Source of the DNA: Candidatus Aenigmatarchaeota archaeon
GTDB lineage: Archaea; Aenigmatarchaeota; Aenigmatarchaeia; QMZP01; QMZT01
DNA: 64,000 nt
Direction of reading: 5' to 3'
NCBI GenBank assembly: GCA_041489155.1
Contig: JBGPQP010000001.1
Span: 87,824 to 151,823, forward strand
Shown here: piece by piece, positions 6,111 through 14,072 of the stretch
Position numbering within the stretch: the stretch's first letter is position 1
Layout of the letters: every line of letters begins with the position of its first letter
Program-made: the position numbers and the translations under genes
Notes under the pieces: model-generated
Database searches by the model: none
What the model saw: the letters and a program-made list of their open reading frames with translations, nothing else
Told to the model about the DNA's origin: nothing

Positions 6111-6236
6111 CACCTTTATTTCCACTGGAGTTTTGTTTTTTGTTTTAAAGCTAAACTTTACGTATACGTATACGTATTATAACGATGTTATAAGTTTCCA
6201 CAGGAAATTAAAATATAGTTCCACAGGAAATTGGGG
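6111..6236. promoter_or_regulatory. Predicted replication origin (oriC): three ORB elements around an AT-rich unwinding element
   Basis: Minus-strand ACTCCAGTGGAAATAAAGGTG (6111-6131); plus-strand GTTTCCACAGGAAAT (6194-6208) and GTTCCACAGGAAATTGGGG (6218-6236). AT-rich spacer, directly upstream of cdc6. Confidence 0.8.
6159..6176. repeat. (TACGTA)x3 palindromic tandem repeat
   Basis: TACGTATACGTATACGTA read directly; an 18-bp perfect palindrome. Confidence 0.9.
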
Positions 6237-6280
6237 TGTGCGAGGCAAAAACATTTAAACCCCCGTTTCATATGGAAAAC

Positions 6281-7489
6281 ATGGCCCAAGTTTCCCTCAA
6301 TAATATTTTCCAAGATTATCTGGAAAAGAAGCCCATTTTCAAGAAAAAAGACATGCTAACAAGTCAGTTCACACCGGACACCATACCACACAGGGATAAA
6401 CAGATCAATCATATCGGTCTCATCCTGGCGCCGGTGCTCCGCGGCGAAAAACCATCCAACATATTCATTTACGGAAAGACAGGCACCGGCAAGTCTCTCT
6501 GCGTCCAGCACACGGTTTCAAGGCTGCTGGAAACGGCCAAAAAAAACGAGGGCGAAAACATCAAGGTAATCTACATTAACTGCAAGATGAGCAAGGTCTC
6601 CGATACCGAGTACAGGATGCTTTCGCAGCTTATACTAAATTTTGGCGTCAGTGTCCCTTTCACGGGCCTGCCGACAAACCAACTTTACCAACAGTTTTTC
6701 AGCCTGCTTGACGCCAAAAAACAGAGCATCATCCTGGTCCTTGACGAGATAGATGCGCTGATTAACAAAATAGGAGACGGCGTGCTTTACAACCTCACAA
6801 GGGTCAATCAGGACCTGAAGAACGCAAAACTCACGCTTGTCGGCATATCCAACAACATATCCTTCATAAACGATCTTGACCCGCGGGTCAAATCCTCGCT
6901 GTCGGAAGAGGAAATAGTTTTTCCGCCCTACAACGCAAACGAGCTTAAGGACATACTAACCGAAAGGGTAGGTTCCGCCTTCAATGAGGGAACGATTACT
7001 CCATCCGTTATAGCGAAGTGCGCGGCCCTGGCAGCGCAGGAGCACGGCGACGCAAGGAAGGCGCTCGATCTGCTGAGGGTTGCCGGAGAGACAGCAGAGA
7101 GAATGAGCAACAACATGGTGGCCGAAGAGCACGTTGACCAGGCAGAAAGGAGGCTGGACATGGACAAGACGACAGAAATAATAAAAAACCAGCCAAAACA
7201 ATCCCAATGCGTCCTTATTGCGATACTAAAACTCGCGAAGAACGGCAACAGCGGCATACAGACAGGCGACATATACGACGTGTACGTAGACGTCTGCAGG
7301 AATAACAATCTCAAGCCGCTGACCCAGAGAAGGGTGTCAGACCTAATATCCGAACTCGACATGTTCGGGATAGTGAACGCCAAGGTGATATCCAAAGGAA
7401 GATACGGAAGGACAAGGGAAATAAAGACGGACCTTTCGAAAGAAACCACGGAAAAGATAGAAAAGATGTTCAGCGGCGAGTTTATTTGA
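6281..7489 (+). CDS. cdc6: Orc1/Cdc6 replication initiator
   Basis: PHRDKQI, Walker A GKTGTGKS, Walker B LDEID, GDARKALDLL, winged-helix SKGRYGRTR. TTTAAA at 6254-6259 favours start 6281 (alternative 6272). Confidence 0.96.
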   Translation: MAQVSLNNIFQDYLEKKPIFKKKDMLTSQFTPDTIPHRDKQINHIGLILAPVLRGEKPSNIFIYGKTGTGKSLCVQHTVSRLLETAKKNEGENIKVIYINCKMSKVSDTEYRMLSQLILNFGVSVPFTGLPTNQLYQQFFSLLDAKKQSIILVLDEIDALINKIGDGVLYNLTRVNQDLKNAKLTLVGISNNISFINDLDPRVKSSLSEEEIVFPPYNANELKDILTERVGSAFNEGTITPSVIAKCAALAAQEHGDARKALDLLRVAGETAERMSNNMVAEEHVDQAERRLDMDKTTEIIKNQPKQSQCVLIAILKLAKNGNSGIQTGDIYDVYVDVCRNNNLKPLTQRRVSDLISELDMFGIVNAKVISKGRYGRTREIKTDLSKETTEKIEKMFSGEFI

Positions 7490-7498
7490 ATTAAGGTT

Positions 7499-8386
7499 AT
7501 GGCCAAGCTTATGAACAAAAAAGACATAATCGATTTGTTTCTTAAAAACGGCGTCATGCTCGCGCCGGATGAACTGGAAAACATCAGCGAGCAGAACTAC
7601 ATGCAGGTGCTCGAGAAAAAGCTTGGCGAGACGAATGACGAGATATTGATCGCCAAACAGAGCAGCGGTAAAATTTCATGCGGCGATTTCATAAAATTAT
7701 GCAACAGGAAATTCGAGTTCCTCAGGGAGATCCTGCTTAAAAAAACAGACGCCGTGTCGATAAACAAGGGAAGGAAGGTTTTTGCCGAGGCGACAATCAT
7801 AGGAAGGGTGAAGGAAAGGAACGCAAACGGATTCGTGCTCGAAGATGTAACGGGAGAGACAGAAGTAGTGAGTGAAAACAACGACATAAAAACAGGCGAT
7901 ATTGTCGGTTTGCGCGGCTTTTTCAAGGAGAATCGTTTTTTCCCGAACCAAATCATATGGCCCGACATCCCGCTCGAGAATAATCCAAGGCCACCCGGCA
8001 TAAAAATCACGCTCACAACTAGGGCAAAAGACAGCATGGCCGGCCTGATAGTATGCTCTTCCGGCGGCAAGGCTAGCAACATGATATCCGGGTTCGGAAG
8101 GCTCGGATCCATAAAAATAAAAAAGCATGGCAGCGAAATTCATCTGCTCGCCTTTTCGCCTGAAAAGGAGATGAGCGAGGATGATACTGTCAAAACGCTC
8201 AAGAAAAGGCAGATATCAGATGACGGCATCGCTGACAACCTGATAGCCGAGATACCAGGAATTTTCTGGCTTTTCAACAACGGCAAAAACTGGACCAAAA
8301 ATTACAGGGGCGTTGTCGTAATATCAAGCGATTCAGGAAGTTTTGCGGAATATGACAACGGGGAAGTCCACTTCGCGGGCTTGTAG
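7499..8386 (+). CDS. Shortened, catalytically degenerate homolog of DNA polymerase D small subunit (DP1; B-subunit-like)
   Basis: DP1-like N-terminal domain (FLKNGVMLAPD), DF...RKFEFLREIL, OB fold (IIGRV...LEDVTG...DIVGLRG...WPDIP), and C-terminal LKKRQI...DNLIAEIPGIF...YRGVVVIS. No DxH, GD, GNHD or GHxH metal ligands. Confidence 0.75.
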   Translation: MAKLMNKKDIIDLFLKNGVMLAPDELENISEQNYMQVLEKKLGETNDEILIAKQSSGKISCGDFIKLCNRKFEFLREILLKKTDAVSINKGRKVFAEATIIGRVKERNANGFVLEDVTGETEVVSENNDIKTGDIVGLRGFFKENRFFPNQIIWPDIPLENNPRPPGIKITLTTRAKDSMAGLIVCSSGGKASNMISGFGRLGSIKIKKHGSEIHLLAFSPEKEMSEDDTVKTLKKRQISDDGIADNLIAEIPGIFWLFNNGKNWTKNYRGVVVISSDSGSFAEYDNGEVHFAGL

Positions 8387-8422: not shown

Positions 8423-9097
8423 ATGCTCAAAATACTCGTCATCGCGGACATACATGGGGAGTTCGAGAAGTTCTCAAAAATCATAGACAAGCTCAGCGGC
8501 AGGGATTTTGACCTGGTGATCTGTCCCGGTGACTTTACCGACATATTCAATATACCTGAAGGCTATTCCCAGATGGACATAGCCGAACTGATAGTCCAGA
8601 AACTGCTCTCGCTGGGCAAGCCTCTCTTCTGCATACCTGGCAACCACGAACCTTATGAAATAATAGACGTGTTCGATGAATACAACGTGAACCTGCATGA
8701 AAGAACGAGGAAGTTCAACGATTTCGAGTTCGTGGGCTTCGGCGGGGCAGCAACACCATTCAACACCAAGTTCGAGCCCACGGATGAGGAAATAAAACAG
8801 GCGCTTGAGAGAAAGACCAAGGAAATAAAAGGCAAATTTATACTGGTCACGCACAACCCGCCGCTTGGTACCAACTTGGACAAGGTTGAAACAGGAGAAC
8901 ATGTCGGCTCGAAAGCGATTCGCGAATTCATAGAGCAGCGAAAGCCCCTGCTTGCGATATCCGCCCACATACACGAGGCAGGAGGCACGGACAAGCTTGG
9001 AAGCACGACCATATTCTATCCGGGCGTTGCCTACGAAGGGTATTACGGCCTTGTTGAGATAGGTGATGAAATAAAATGCGAGATAAAAAAGATATGA
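8423..9097 (+). CDS. Calcineurin-like metallophosphoesterase
   Basis: ADIHG, GDFTD, GNHE, THNPP, AHIHE motifs. Confidence 0.9.
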   Translation: MLKILVIADIHGEFEKFSKIIDKLSGRDFDLVICPGDFTDIFNIPEGYSQMDIAELIVQKLLSLGKPLFCIPGNHEPYEIIDVFDEYNVNLHERTRKFNDFEFVGFGGAATPFNTKFEPTDEEIKQALERKTKEIKGKFILVTHNPPLGTNLDKVETGEHVGSKAIREFIEQRKPLLAISAHIHEAGGTDKLGSTTIFYPGVAYEGYYGLVEIGDEIKCEIKKI

Positions 9098-9108: not shown

Positions 9109-9828
9109 TCAGACAATGTCTTTCAGCCTGTTCATTATCTCTTCTATTGACTCGATCCTGCACAAAGCCACGGGTATGCTCTCGACTTCAGCGATGTTCA
9201 TGGCAACTTCATTCACCTTGTCTATGCCGTGAAGCACGACCAGACCGGGCTGCAGACCGGTGAGCTTGATGGCAACCATTGGCGTTTTTCCGGTAGTCAC
9301 GCCCGTGAAGAGAAGGGCGCGTTGTGTCGTAGTTCCATAAAGCTGGATCAGCTGGTTGTGTGAAAGCTCCAGTATTGCCTTCACAGAGTCTACAATGGTG
9401 TAACCGTATATTTCCCTGTCAATGGGGGCACGTTTTGTTATTATGCCTGCGTTTATTTTCCTGCAGAAATCCTCTACAGGGACGCCGCTAGAAAATTCGC
9501 GTATGTCTATTATCGCCTTGGAAAGGTTCGAAGTGCTGGCGACCTGGGCGAAGGTCTTGAGAACATTTCCGCCCCTTTTGATGTCAAGACCTATCAGCGA
9601 ATTGACGTACCTCTTTATGACGTTTATGCCTGGCGATTTCCTTCTGCCTGATTCATAGTCGGATATGACAGATGACGTAATGCCAATGTACTCGGCGAGC
9701 CTCTTCTGCGAAAAACCGAAGATTACCCTCCATTTCTTCAGGACCTGCTCGGGTTTTTCGGACAGTATGATTTCTCCTGTTATATCCTTTGCTAGCCTGT
9801 CTCTTGAAAGGTTAAATTCGTCAACCAT
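9109..9828 (-). CDS. Archaeal XRE-HTH transcriptional regulator (COG1709-like)
   Basis: KKWR..F..SQKRLA...SSVISDYESGRRKSPG HTH; C-terminal RALLFTGVTTGKTPMVAI. Confidence 0.85.
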   Translation of the reverse strand: MVDEFNLSRDRLAKDITGEIILSEKPEQVLKKWRVIFGFSQKRLAEYIGITSSVISDYESGRRKSPGINVIKRYVNSLIGLDIKRGGNVLKTFAQVASTSNLSKAIIDIREFSSGVPVEDFCRKINAGIITKRAPIDREIYGYTIVDSVKAILELSHNQLIQLYGTTTQRALLFTGVTTGKTPMVAIKLTGLQPGLVVLHGIDKVNEVAMNIAEVESIPVALCRIESIEEIMNRLKDIV

Positions 9829-9978: not shown

Positions 9979-11205
9979 ATGTTCCTGGAGATTTTGCTTT
10001 TTGTTCTCCTCGGAATCGTGCTTGGTTTCTTCACAGGGCTCGCGCCAGGCATACATCCCAACACAATATTTGCCTTTACGCTTTCCCTTTCGTTTCTGTT
10101 TATCGGTTTTCCGATTCAGGCAATACTGGCCTTCGTTGTTTCACTGGCGGTTTCGAATACATTTTTTGATTTCATCCCATCAATATTTTTCGGAGCACCA
10201 GAGGAAGATTCGGCGATTTCGGTTCTTCCTGGCCACAGGATGCTGCTGAAAGGGAGAGGATACGAAGCAATTTTCCTCACTGCGATGGGAGGGCTGGGGG
10301 TCATGTTTCTCACGGTTATGAGCCTGCCATTCCTTTTCGTCCTTCTGCCGTCGATCTACTTTGTTATAAAACCCGTGATCCACATCATCCTCATAACAGC
10401 TGTTTTATGGATGGTCTGGATGGAAAGAGGAACGAAAAAACGATTGGCAGCGGCTTCAATATTTCTCGCATCCGGCATTTTCGGTTTCATTACACTCAAT
10501 TCTTTGCCTTCGGACGGAGCGCTGTTCCCCGCCCTCACAGGCCTTTTCGGCCTGAGCACGATCCTTACAAGCATCATGGAGAAGACAAGGATACCGCCGC
10601 AGAAGATACGGAGCGAAGTTCACGGAAACTGGCTAAAGGGGAGTCTGGCAGGCTGGATTGCCGGCATGATTTCCGGGCTGCTTCCTGGTCTGGGTTCTTC
10701 TCAGGCAGGCATAATTGCAGCCCAAGCGCTAAAAGCCAAGATGAAGGAGTTCCTCATCGCCCTTGGCGGCATAAACACGTCCAACATGTTTTTCACGTTC
10801 ATTGTCTTCTATCTGCTCGGTAAAACGAGATCCGGCGCTGTATGGATGATTTCACAGATTATGGACCAGTTCACAGTGCAGGACATGGGCATCATTGTCG
10901 TGGTCGGAGTGATTACCGCGCTTGTTTCCGCAGTAGCCACCATAAAAGCAGCCAGACTGCTTCTGGGTTTCATGAGAAAACTAAACTACACCAAGACTAT
11001 GATAATCACGGCCTGCGTGCTTTCTGTAATGATCGTGGCTTTATCAGGGCCGCTGGGAGTTATGATTTCGGTAACAGGAACCTTTCTGGGTCTGTTGGCG
11101 GTGTCAACAGGCATCAAAAGAACGAATCTCATGGGGTTTTTAATATTGCCAACCATCCTTTACTTCTCCGGCTTCAACCCGTTCTTTTCAGGAATATTGT
11201 GGTAA
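9979..11205 (+). CDS. Tripartite tricarboxylate transporter TctA-like membrane protein (DUF112)
   Basis: GLAPGIHPN, FIPSIFFGAP, SVLPGH...GRGYEA, PALTGLFG; many TM helices. Confidence 0.85.
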   Translation: MFLEILLFVLLGIVLGFFTGLAPGIHPNTIFAFTLSLSFLFIGFPIQAILAFVVSLAVSNTFFDFIPSIFFGAPEEDSAISVLPGHRMLLKGRGYEAIFLTAMGGLGVMFLTVMSLPFLFVLLPSIYFVIKPVIHIILITAVLWMVWMERGTKKRLAAASIFLASGIFGFITLNSLPSDGALFPALTGLFGLSTILTSIMEKTRIPPQKIRSEVHGNWLKGSLAGWIAGMISGLLPGLGSSQAGIIAAQALKAKMKEFLIALGGINTSNMFFTFIVFYLLGKTRSGAVWMISQIMDQFTVQDMGIIVVVGVITALVSAVATIKAARLLLGFMRKLNYTKTMIITACVLSVMIVALSGPLGVMISVTGTFLGLLAVSTGIKRTNLMGFLILPTILYFSGFNPFFSGILW

Positions 11206-11400
11206 CCCCTTCATTTCCTGTGAAACATGAGCAAAACAAGCTTATATAGGACATGTTTTAAAATATAATTTCCATAAGAAATGAAGGTTGTTTCACCTTC
11301 ACCGTGAAATTACCAGCGTTGAAAATGAAGGTATCCTTCGTGAACTTCATGCAAAACTCCACAGGAAACAGAGGGGGTTCATACTTCATGGTGAAGTTCA
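11206..11400. promoter_or_regulatory. Second ORB cluster (candidate origin/Orc1-binding site) between convergent genes
   Basis: Minus GTTTCACAGGAAATGAAGGGG (11206-11226); plus TTTCCATAAGAAATGAAGG (11269-11287); plus CTCCACAGGAAACAGAGGGGG (11357-11377). AT-rich stretch at 11240-11270. Confidence 0.7.
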
Positions 11401-11432: not shown

Positions 11433-14072
11433 TCAGATTACAATGCTGCTGGCAGGTCCTTGCGGCGAAGAGAACAGCAGTAAACCACCGCATTCGCAGG
11501 CTCCGCTTAGCGGAGGCATCGCATATGTTTTGCAGCATTTTTTGCAGATGAAGCCGTTAAAGTCTTTCATGGAAACTTCCTTCGCTTCAATCGCTTTTCC
11601 GCCATTTCCGTTCAATATGCCGAACAAATCGATCTGCTTGCCTTTGCCAAGAAGCTCGGTCTTTGAAATGCCTAGCGCATCGAATATTCGTTCGAGCGGA
11701 GGAAGCAGCTGGTTTTCTATGTAGTACTTCGAGTCTATTTCCAGCCCCCGTTCCATGACGTAAACCGGGTCTTCCGCCCTTTTTGACAGGAGATCGAGGC
11801 CTTTTATTATCACATAACCAATCCTGTCCCCGACGCCTGGCGCTTCAGCCGGCGTGCGTTTCTTTATCTTTTTCACGAGTTCTGCATGCGGCTGCATGCC
11901 GTCATAGCGTTCCGCTCCTTTGGTCATGGTCTTGGTTATTATCAGCTTCTGTATGGGTATCCCGCCAGTGACCATTTCATCAGTAACGTTTTTGAAATAT
12001 TTCACAGCCTGCTTGATGTCATTTGCCTTGAGTATGGTTTCCAAAATCTTCTCTATTGTTTCTGATGTAAGATCGCACCAGTCTCTCCGGACGGTTTCAA
12101 TACCCTTCGTTTCTATGCTTTCAACCCAGCTCCCGTTGACGTAATCGAAACGCCATGCAGCATAGCGTTTTTTTGTGAGAGGCAGGAAGCGCTTGAAAAT
12201 TTTCTCGAAATCAAGTTCCATCACGCCCTTCAGGCCTGACGTAACGTTTTTGGCCACTTCGTCTCCGGCTTTCTTCATCTCATCGAGATCCTCGAAAGGC
12301 ACCTTGACCATCACGGAATCCGTGTCACCGTAAACGACCCTGTAGCCGAACTTCTCCTCTATGTATTCTTTCGTCTTCTTTATGGTTTCCCTTCCGAATC
12401 CGGTTATCGAGTTGGCTATTTCAAGAGAGTAGATTTTCGCTCTGGGGTAGCCGAAATAGCCATAGAAGGCGTTGGCCATTATCTTGAGGGCGAACTGCTT
12501 CGCTTTCAGTTCACGTATGCGTTCAGGCTTCGGCTCCTTCTTCATTTCCCTTTTCACGTTTTGCCTCTCCTTCATAAGATGCTCCAGTATCCGTGGTATT
12601 ATCCCCTTCCTGACGTTTTCTGGCACGAATCTCGCCCCGGACGGCGACTGCACGGCGCCCTCGATTTCTCCGTCCAGAAGCAAAGTCGTCGGGCACATGT
12701 TATACGTCCGGATGAGCGAAGGGTACATGGACTTGAAATCAAGCACAAGGACGCTTGAGTGCAGGCCCTTGTCAGGTTCTATAACGAAACCGCCTTTCAA
12801 TTCGACCTTTCTGGCGTTTTCCCGCTTGGCGACTTCCATGTTGTCCGACTTGCATGGAATTATGAAGTTCTCTTTATTGAACTCCCTCAGTATAAGGTTT
12901 TCGATCCTCGTGGTCTCGCCGGAATCAAGTATGTCCTGCAGTAGGATTCCTGAAATCTTGGAAAGAGCAATGTACTTGTCCAGCAGGTTGAGTTTCAGCA
13001 AAAGGTTCATCGCGATAACGGAGTCCTTTTTCGCGTAATTCACCAGAAGCCTGAATTTTTCCTGGTTGCCCTTCCAGAGCTTTTCTATCTCCGATTTCTT
13101 CACAGGTTCCTTTTCCTCGCCGAGCAGCTCAAGACCCACGGTGTTCAGGTCATATCTCTTGAGGGAGAAGTCACGTTTGACAATTTCAAAGGAATCAACT
13201 ATTACCCTCCCGGATATGTTTATCTTGAATCTGCTCATCATCTGGTGTTTCGTAACGGGTTTTGTGCACCTACCGAAACTCGCGAATACCCCTCTTTCCT
13301 TCATTCTGTCGAGTATGTAGGGTATGTCGAAGTTATTGACGTTGAAGCCGGTGATGATGTCAGGGTCATAGTCCATTATTACGTCTATCAGTCCCCTGAG
13401 CATTTCACTTTCGTCCTCAAAAAAGGTAACGTCCTTGTCGGACCTCGTGCTCAGCACCATTTCCTTCCTCCCCTTGTGCGCATCGCTGAAAACGAGCGAA
13501 ATCATTATTATCGGGTCCTTCCTGCCGTCAGGCATTTCCCCCTCTTTAAGCGAAACGCACTCTATGTCAAGTGCCAGATATTTCAGCGGCGCGATGCCAT
13601 CCTTGTCGGCATGCCTGAATTCCTTTATTTTTATCCTTTTTTCCGTTTTCACGGTGTTCGTCGGGACGCCGTTCGTGTCTTCAACTTCCAGCCAGTCCAT
13701 GCCCTTTAGGCCGAAGTCCGCCATGAACCTGTATTTGAAAGGAATGTCAGCCTCGAAGACACGGAAGCCTCTTGACATGAGCTTTTCCCTCAGCTCAGGC
13801 GTCTTTGCAGGATTTTTTATTACGACTTTCCAGACATCCTTCATCTCCGTCTGGTAGCCGAGCGGAAGGAATTTTTTCACCTTCTCCAGACGCACGAAAT
13901 TCGCTTCGTTCTTTACATGATCCTCGATATTGTTTCCGAGCACGTAGAAATAGGGCTCGAAATTCTCGTAGAAACCGCATACGGTTTCGCCATTTTCAGT
14001 CTTGCCGAAAAGCCTTATTATCGGCTTTTCGTCGACCAGCGTGTAGTCCACGTCGAGTATCTGGAAAAGCAT
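11433..14072 (-). CDS. polB: Family B DNA polymerase, Pol-delta-like, with C-terminal PIP-like box and DP2-type Zn finger
   Basis: Exo I DIEC, Exo II FNVNNFD, Exo III YAKKD; DFKSMYPS, KIMANAFYG, YGDTDS, KKRY, KGIETVRRDWC. C-terminal QIDLF and CKKC...PPLSGACECGG. Confidence 0.96.
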   Translation of the reverse strand: MLFQILDVDYTLVDEKPIIRLFGKTENGETVCGFYENFEPYFYVLGNNIEDHVKNEANFVRLEKVKKFLPLGYQTEMKDVWKVVIKNPAKTPELREKLMSRGFRVFEADIPFKYRFMADFGLKGMDWLEVEDTNGVPTNTVKTEKRIKIKEFRHADKDGIAPLKYLALDIECVSLKEGEMPDGRKDPIIMISLVFSDAHKGRKEMVLSTRSDKDVTFFEDESEMLRGLIDVIMDYDPDIITGFNVNNFDIPYILDRMKERGVFASFGRCTKPVTKHQMMSRFKINISGRVIVDSFEIVKRDFSLKRYDLNTVGLELLGEEKEPVKKSEIEKLWKGNQEKFRLLVNYAKKDSVIAMNLLLKLNLLDKYIALSKISGILLQDILDSGETTRIENLILREFNKENFIIPCKSDNMEVAKRENARKVELKGGFVIEPDKGLHSSVLVLDFKSMYPSLIRTYNMCPTTLLLDGEIEGAVQSPSGARFVPENVRKGIIPRILEHLMKERQNVKREMKKEPKPERIRELKAKQFALKIMANAFYGYFGYPRAKIYSLEIANSITGFGRETIKKTKEYIEEKFGYRVVYGDTDSVMVKVPFEDLDEMKKAGDEVAKNVTSGLKGVMELDFEKIFKRFLPLTKKRYAAWRFDYVNGSWVESIETKGIETVRRDWCDLTSETIEKILETILKANDIKQAVKYFKNVTDEMVTGGIPIQKLIITKTMTKGAERYDGMQPHAELVKKIKKRTPAEAPGVGDRIGYVIIKGLDLLSKRAEDPVYVMERGLEIDSKYYIENQLLPPLERIFDALGISKTELLGKGKQIDLFGILNGNGGKAIEAKEVSMKDFNGFICKKCCKTYAMPPLSGACECGGLLLFSSPQGPASSIVI

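Follow-up and report, generated by a model that had tools for sequence, protein, structure and literature searches.

A protein of 295 amino acids encoded at positions 7499..8386 of a 64-kb stretch of a Candidatus Aenigmatarchaeota genome (64,000 nucleotides of contig JBGPQP010000001.1, referred to as the window) resembles DP1, the small subunit of DNA polymerase D (PolD), whose other subunit is DP2. This DP1-like protein is most likely the sole surviving DP1 descendant of its lineage, is nuclease-dead, and most likely acts as the B-subunit of a family-B DNA polymerase (PolB) with a C-terminal zinc tail.

A DP1-like protein with a reduced phosphoesterase fold

The open reading frame (ORF) and its domains are located as follows:

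7499..8386, + strand: DP1-like/B-subunit-like protein, whole ORF including the stop codon, ATG start, 295 amino acids, intact
7499..7633, + strand: N-terminal three-helix domain, DP1N-like (residues 1-45)
7634..7978, + strand: linker helix, OB fold and PDIPL hinge (residues 46-160)
7979..8383, + strand: reduced, ligand-free phosphoesterase (PDE) remnant (residues 161-295; from the alignment and the motif table)

The NCBIfam profile NF003118, which describes the PolD small subunit, matches residues 52-164, that is, the OB region only, with an E-value of 9.2e-15 and 54.5 bits compared to a cut-off of 445 bits, and the Pfam model DNA_pol_E_B (PF04042) does not match the DP1-like protein. A profile made of 27 orthologue sequences, which was also the input for an AlphaFold2 model, matches six DP1 sequences of the PDB with E-values of 5.5e-7 to 1.4e-5, the best of which (5.5e-7) lies in the OB/hinge part; a weak second stretch of the profile, IPDILWLVNNKKNW, falls onto the GHxH-bearing segment of PDB DP1. 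The landmarks by which the sequence-only reading had recognised the protein as a DP1 homolog, namely FLKNGVMLAPDEL, LEDVTGE, WPDIPL, LKKRQ, EIPGIF and NYRGVVVIS, each align, in this order, with full-length DP1s from DP2-bearing genomes of the same phylum. The N-terminal domain, made up of helices 7-16, 23-28 and 34-41 in the AlphaFold2 model (pLDDT 85.3, pTM 0.76), likewise aligns with the N-termini of full-length DP1s of the phylum and gives a weak match to NF003118 (profile positions 3-51, E 0.155).

A structure search, which had been proposed as a check together with the first reading, returned DP1 and B-subunit matches rather than none. Among the Foldseek matches listed, ranks 1 to 49 are all DP1 (from P. 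abyssi and T. kodakarensis) or B-subunits of the eukaryotic polymerases alpha, delta, epsilon and zeta (best E 1.6e-12), and rank 50 is the OB fold of a lysyl-tRNA synthetase. The best match found by VIA-align is P. abyssi DP1 (5ihe_A; Z 18.7, root-mean-square deviation 4.8), with 256 of the 295 residues aligned onto residues 176-615; the eukaryotic B-subunits reach Z-scores of 15-17, for instance 16.9 for human Pol delta p50 (3e0j_A). Since VIA-align also aligns the C-terminal 135 residues to DP1 and p50, with the structural alignment of the PDE remnant extending to DP1 residue 615, this part of the model is a reduced PDE fold and nothing unrelated. As modelled, the fold of the ORF product thus matches DP1 and the eukaryotic B-subunits: an OB fold is followed by a calcineurin-like phosphoesterase fold, the latter at about half of its usual size. 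Together with the NF003118 and profile matches, this puts the relationship to DP1 clearly above chance level.

The fate of the nuclease motifs was assessed in an alignment of the window protein and five further sequences of its own order with six DP1s from DP2-bearing genomes, nine intermediate forms and eight short forms from other orders. All six DP1s of the phylum that are accompanied by DP2 in their genome keep SD[LI]H, GDL.DG, GNHD, YHG and GH[LI]H. At these five motif columns, the window protein has TRA---, CSSGGK, a deletion (the GNHD region), AFSPEK and LFNNGK, so that zero ligands are left, and none of the five motifs (DxH, GD, GNH[DE], H and GHxH) is found in any of the six aligned sequences of the order (6/6), the window protein included. 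The PDIPL hinge is followed by 136 residues in the window protein compared to 237-284 residues in the six DP1s from DP2-bearing genomes, which means that a deletion has removed roughly half of the PDE core. Alignment and motif table hence confirm what had been read from the letters at the outset, the loss of all proofreading-nuclease ligands and of much of the phosphoesterase core.

Distribution of DP2 and canonical DP1

The genome to which the window belongs (1.13 Mb, 39 contigs, 89.65% complete) was searched for DP2 with PF03833 and TIGR00354, and for DP1 with PF04042; none of these was found in it. NF003118 recovers the DP1-like ORF and two weak OB matches, and no other protein of this genome. 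In the 41 genomes of the order, 21 of which are at least 90% complete, neither DP2 (0/41) nor canonical DP1 (0/41) was found by searches that were positive in three archaeal control genomes. An even set of 121 genomes was used to sample the phylum: six contain DP2, comprising all five genomes of one family and one of the 23 of another, and among the high-quality genomes the count is three of 85. The DP1-like profile is matched in 116 of the 121 genomes. PF04042 is matched at E ≤0.001 in 18 of the 121, 11 of them above the cut-off, and the five strongest of these matches are found in DP2-bearing genomes.

As DP2 is lacking consistently, in 115 of 121 genomes, assembly gaps are an unlikely cause. 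The sequence-only reading had offered two interpretations of the protein, a non-proofreading PolD subunit and a repurposed paralog. The first is not supported by the searches for DP2, which was not found in the genome itself or in the 41 genomes of the order, nor is the second supported by the genome search proposed along with it, which revealed no second, catalytically intact DP1. Since there is neither a DP2 nor a second DP1 in these results, the window protein would be neither a PolD subunit nor a paralogue, and the failure to find a second, catalytically intact DP1 makes it the only DP1 descendant of the lineage.

A PolB with a DP2-like zinc tail is the proposed partner

The candidate catalytic partner is a family-B DNA polymerase encoded about 3 kb from the DP1-like gene (residue numbers of PolB are given without the initiator Met; 1 has to be added for numbering from the start codon):

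11433..14072, - strand: family-B DNA polymerase, proposed catalytic partner (PF00136 8.5e-111, PF03104 2.3e-43)
11436..11579, - strand: C-terminal tail of PolB with a C4 zinc motif, residues 831-878 (invariant Cys, alignment with DP2, predicted contacts)
11613..11636, - strand: PIP-box-like QIDLFGIL just upstream of the zinc tail (read from the sequence; Q812 invariant)

The four cysteines of the tail (C842, C845, C858 and C860) are invariant in 38 PolB homologues, and the tail aligns with the zinc finger near the C-terminus of DP2 of the same phylum, sharing the four Cys and PPLSG (E 5e-6, search with three sequences). The same 38 homologues invariably contain the exonuclease residues D168/E170, N243/D248 and Y345/D349 and the polymerase residues D444 and YGDTDS 580-585. 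PolB should be able to proofread alone, as its own exonuclease residues are intact and invariant.

The last 55 amino acids of PolB are matched in 109 of the 121 genomes of the phylum sample. In 102 of these 109 cases, the match ends a frame of 809-1730 amino acids, which is PolB-sized as judged by frame length, and three further matches lie in shorter frames (in genome G033, where PolB runs off the contig start, and in G108 and G118). In the DP2-bearing genomes, the tail matches DP2 itself in G116 and frames of 203-481 amino acids in G044, G062 and G110, and the search gave no match in G053 and G088. The DP1-like gene thus co-occurs with a PolB carrying a DP2-like zinc motif, and 15 of the 20 loci that are more distant within the order have no more than 4 kb between the two genes.

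G110 (loci L037 and L042) belongs to a family otherwise lacking DP2 and contains DP2, a DP1 with all five motifs and the zinc-tail match in a frame of 481 amino acids; possible reasons are contamination, a PolB that is only partial, or the presence of the two systems side by side. A second PolB of the window's genome, which has 833 amino acids and is encoded on contig 7 (G000:C7, locus L064, 328-2829), has no Cys-rich tail and a basic, PIP-like C-terminal end. DP2 of the same phylum carries a QFSLSSF-type motif past its zinc finger, at the extreme C-terminus, and the motif of PolB lies upstream of its zinc tail. QIDLFGIL may be a PIP box.

The contact between the two proteins was modelled with the DP1-like protein, a Zn ion and PolB residues 800-878. 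The complex score is 0.71 (0.68, 0.73 and 0.71 in the individual runs), and the best of three controls scores 0.00. Of 157 solved complexes, 116 attain the mark that the pair passed, compared to two of 215 mismatched pairs. Contact agreement between the runs is 94% or higher, and the pLDDT of the partner is at least 68. On the DP1-like protein, contacts are predicted for residues 54-72, 103-117, 132-133 and 242-245, most of them in the linker/OB part, and on PolB for residues 831-878. Physical binding of the DP1-like protein to the C-terminal tail of PolB is therefore predicted in silico, and the model provides support rather than proof. According to the text of PMC12680538, AlphaFold3 models and yeast two-hybrid assays indicate that DP1 of Aenigmatarchaeota binds a PolB with a DP2-type C-terminal domain (PolB-DP2CTD) and does not bind canonical PolBs.

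Taken together, the DP1 descendant would bind the DP2-derived C4 zinc tail of the neighbouring PolB in the way eukaryotic B-subunits bind their polymerases, and a two-subunit PolB holoenzyme would result, to which PolB brings its own intact 3'-5' exonuclease. The protein may also affect the activity of the polymerase. In Thermococcus, the N-terminal domain of DP1 (DP1N) binds Gins51C, as reported in the text of Oki et al. (PMC9023282); by analogy, it is reasonable to assume that the retained N-terminal domain of the DP1-like protein may tether the polymerase to the GINS/CMG helicase. A gene of the GINS family is present in the window's genome. The idea that the protein acts as a scaffold survives from the sequence-only reading, and the assignments as PolD subunit and as paralog do not; its likely partner, the PolB 3 kb away, had been overlooked.

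Several points weigh against the assignment as PolB B-subunit. DP2 has to be counted as not found rather than as proven absent, because the genome is 89.65% complete. For this particular pair, binding is a model prediction, the use of our own alignments and of a riding Zn ion differs from the calibration of the tool, and the pass may reflect similar complexes that have been solved (DP1 with the C-terminal domain (CTD) of DP2, and B-subunits with polymerase CTDs). In five of the 20 more distant loci, the 4 kb around the DP1-like gene contain no PolB. The DP1-like protein also diverges more rapidly than the proteins encoded next to it: across 11 loci, its homologues are 38-60% identical to the window protein, compared to identities of 58-80% for Cdc6 and 63-83% for the phosphoesterase encoded downstream, so that constraint is weaker than on core replication proteins. 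Finally, the two-hybrid data in the text of PMC12680538 are evidence at the level of the phylum rather than for the window protein.

Selection and graded reduction of the phosphoesterase fold

A homologue of the DP1-like protein is present in 39 of the 41 genomes of the order, and the two genomes without a match are 84% and 71% complete. In all 39, the best full-length match is free of internal stops, and the frames comprise 290-370 amino acids. The ratio of non-synonymous to synonymous substitution rates (dN/dS, Nei-Gojobori) is 0.10-0.35 overall, with values of 0.20 at dS 0.21, 0.35 at dS 0.05 and 0.10-0.13 in five diverged pairs (dS 1.2-1.6); as dS is saturated (>1.8) between the window gene and its relatives, the ratio is informative for pairs among the relatives only. 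Calculated per domain, dN/dS is 0.10-0.31 and all three domains are constrained, the exception being a near-identical pair with too few changes; the PDE remnant has values of 0.10-0.25. Across the 27 sequences of the profile, 25 columns are invariant, and within the PDE remnant these include R237, P253, N261, W265, G271, S276 and F292. The ORF is an intact gene under selection and not a pseudogene. The dN/dS check proposed with the first reading therefore revealed constraint and no decay among orthologues, and the view of the protein as an intact ORF with a scaffold function gains support from the dN/dS values of 0.10-0.35, the constraint on three domains and the intact copies in 39 of 41 genomes. 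An apparent fusion with the phosphoesterase in G026 (an open frame of 504 amino acids) was rejected, since the profile search gives a frame of 316 amino acids and cdc6 abuts the gene.

Across the phylum, the proteins fall into three size classes: forms of 450-494 amino acids with all motifs where DP2 is present, forms of 364-407 amino acids lacking GNH[DE], and ligand-free forms of 290-343 amino acids. In the nine aligned intermediates (364-407 amino acids, from DP2-lacking genomes), GNH[DE] is kept in 0/9, DxH in 7/9, GD in 8/9 and GHxH in 6/9, and none of the five motifs is left in the eight short forms of 291-343 amino acids that come from other orders. Judging from the retained motif residues, the 364-407 amino acid forms, for example those at loci L046, L047, L049 and L052, might have residual activity or bind metal. 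It is possible, albeit on balance doubtful, that Aenigmatarchaeota carry a natural deletion series of the DP1 PDE fold that followed the loss of DP2, that the order of the window has the smallest functional B-subunit known, and that a B-subunit can largely do without the PDE fold; the last point follows from the predicted interface with the polymerase tail, for which the OB fold and the linker helix would be the main basis. The word 'truncat*' does not occur in the main text of PMC7544198, and no discussion of such a series was found in the passages of the literature consulted, supplementary figures aside.

Gene neighbourhood and alternative explanations

The genes and repeats around the DP1-like gene are:

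6196..6230, + strand: two tandem ORB-like repeats (TTCCACAGGAAA) at 6196-6207 and 6219-6230, upstream of cdc6
6236..7489, + strand: cdc6/orc1 initiator gene (Pfam: Cdc6_C 1.2e-29, Cdc6_lid 1.9e-25, AAA)
8423-9097, + strand: calcineurin-type phosphoesterase, intact, 224 amino acids (PF00149 8.6e-22, PF14582 2.5e-14; nearest solved structure aq_1956, 2yvt)
9109-9828, - strand: HTH protein
9979-11205: TctA-family membrane protein
11214..11368: two inverted ORB-like repeats (TTCCACAGGAAA variants) at 11214-11225 (-) and 11357-11368 (+), between the TctA and PolB genes

The DP1-like ORF begins 9 nucleotides past the stop codon of cdc6, and the phosphoesterase gene begins 36 nucleotides downstream of the DP1-like ORF. 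The order cdc6, DP1-like gene, phosphoesterase is kept in all 12 near loci, in 11 of which the HTH gene is next, the twelfth being cut by a contig end. In the 20 more distant loci of the order, cdc6 adjoins the DP1-like gene without exception (20/20). The sequence TTCCACWGGAAA, with at most one mismatch, is present in four copies in the window compared to 0.75 expected, a number that was reached in one of 100 shuffles, and all four copies are confined to two intergenic regions (6113-6237 and 11206-11376) that flank the block of cdc6, DP1-like, phosphoesterase, HTH and TctA genes. We take these repeats to be similar to archaeal ORB elements; judged by the repeats, one or two replication origins may be located in the flanking intergenic regions. 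A (TACG)n-like AT-rich stretch is present at 6160-6180.

This neighbourhood speaks for the idea that the main role of the DP1-like protein is at the origin, together with Cdc6/Orc1 or the helicase, for example as an adaptor bound to GINS or to the initiator and apart from the PolB tail. All 32 loci have the gene next to cdc6 and in the same orientation, the ORB-like repeats flank the cluster, and the protein keeps a DP1N-like domain, the domain that binds Gins51C in Thermococcus (PMC9023282). We nevertheless consider such a main role unlikely: zinc tail and DP1-like gene co-occur throughout the phylum, the complex model favours the PolB tail, and the two-hybrid interaction reported in the text of PMC12680538 for the phylum is one between DP1 and PolB-DP2CTD. 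A role at the origin would be compatible with the function as B-subunit if it were an additional one. Moreover, the adjacency of cdc6 and DP1 genes is presumably ancestral synteny, which is known from Pyrococcus.

That the ORF represents a slowly decaying DP1 pseudogene without present function could be suspected from the loss of half of the PDE fold and of all ligands, from lengths that drop stepwise across the phylum and from its rank as the fastest-evolving gene of the cluster. This is very improbable given the absence of internal stops in 39 genomes, dN/dS values of 0.10-0.35 that extend to the PDE remnant, 25 invariant columns in 27 sequences and the persistence of the family in 116 of the 121 genomes sampled from a phylum whose genome size is about 1 Mb.

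The phosphoesterase gene raises the question of a split DP1, in which the DP1-like protein and the downstream metallophosphoesterase (8423-9097) would form one unit with the nuclease provided in trans. Its calcineurin-type signature is intact (PF00149 8.6e-22), it is the next gene downstream in all 12 near loci and in seven of the 20 distant ones, and in 28 of the 32 genomes by which the order is represented in the phylum sample it is found within 3.5 kb of the DP1-like gene. We rejected it as the missing half of the PDE: it is a complete Metallophos domain without PF04042 signal, and its position is not fixed. Its closest solved relative is aq_1956 (2yvt, 1.1e-7) and not DP1, several DP2-lacking families have no strong orthologue of it, and PolB has exonuclease motifs of its own. 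In the 20 distant loci, it is directly downstream on the same strand in seven, convergent just downstream in two, on the far side of cdc6 in ten, and unseen in one locus that starts at a contig end; in 12 of the 20 it is thus either beyond cdc6 or encoded in the reverse orientation. A split DP1 is accordingly hardly credible. In the four remaining genomes of the 32, the phosphoesterase is 8.3 kb away in one and on another contig in three, and it is usually co-located with the HTH gene (9109-9828).

Least probable of all is a non-proofreading small subunit of PolD whose DP2 escaped detection in an incomplete assembly (89.65%, 39 contigs), for although six of 121 genomes of the phylum do have DP2, it was found in 0/41 genomes of the order, 21 of them with a completeness of 90% or more, and in 3/85 high-quality genomes of the phylum, TIGR00354 was negative as well, and the DP2-bearing genomes carry a full-length DP1 with five motifs.

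Comparison with known systems

The proposed B-subunit of a zinc-tailed PolB has close counterparts in the literature on the phylum. In the text of Kazlauskas et al. 2020 (PMC7544198), most Aenigmarchaeota are described as lacking DP2 and as having a group of inactivated DP1s, together with group-B6 PolBs whose CTD has its nearest counterpart in DP2 and contains a single zinc motif ('B6-aenigma1') or two, and Table S4 lists a representative DP1 of 336 amino acids that adjoins its B6 PolB. The window agrees with this description in phylum, inactive PDE fold, lack of DP2, a B6-type PolB with one DP2-like zinc motif and binding to the tail, which is proposed and, going by the text of PMC12680538, experimentally supported. 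Compared by table entry, the published representative has 336 amino acids and lies beside PolB, whereas the proteins of the window's order have 290-330 amino acids, are encoded beside cdc6 and lie about 3 kb from PolB. The arrangement is thus already known, since it has been published for the phylum including an interaction assay. Among 50 matches, 22 carry a source name, nearly all of them 'hypothetical protein'; as such proteins are mostly recorded in this way, the value of the window is confirmatory. By the source names of the homologues, the window belongs to Aenigmarchaeota. The present analysis adds a survey of 121 genomes, in which DP2 and the PolB zinc tail are complementary, a graded series of PDE erosion and a conserved, origin-proximal cluster of cdc6, DP1-like, phosphoesterase and PolB genes; the erosion series and the origin cluster are incremental additions.

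Compared to canonical DP1 (P. abyssi, PDB 5ihe/6t8h), the window protein shares the arrangement of the domains (N-terminal, OB, PDE), the PDIPL hinge, similarity in the OB sequence and, with Pyrococcus, the position of the gene beside cdc6, but it has lost the five PDE motifs, has 136 instead of about 265 residues past the hinge, and no DP2 partner was found for it in its genome. The eukaryotic B-subunits POLD2/Pol31, POLE2/Dpb2 and POLA2/Pol12 represent the same type of scaffold, a nuclease-dead PDE and an OB fold on the Cys-rich CTD of a family-B polymerase. The B-subunits of Pol epsilon and Pol alpha carry an N-terminal helical domain, as does the DP1-like protein. However, the eukaryotic proteins have a full-size PDE and bind CTDs with CysA, CysB and a helical bundle, whereas the PDE remnant of the window protein is much smaller and its proposed binding site is a single C4 ribbon. 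The other archaeal lineage reported to be without DP2, the Baldrarchaeia, has kept DP1 together with a fusion of PolB and the DP2 CTD (PolB3-DP2CTD), as described in the text of PMC12680538; it belongs to a different superphylum (Asgard) and is likened to the lineage of the window by that published description. Eukaryotic replicative polymerases combine a family-B catalytic subunit with a nuclease-dead DP1 descendant that is held by a Cys-rich tail. The same architecture within Archaea, in Aenigmatarchaeota, bears on the origin of the eukaryotic replisome, as already argued in the texts of PMC7544198 and PMC12680538.

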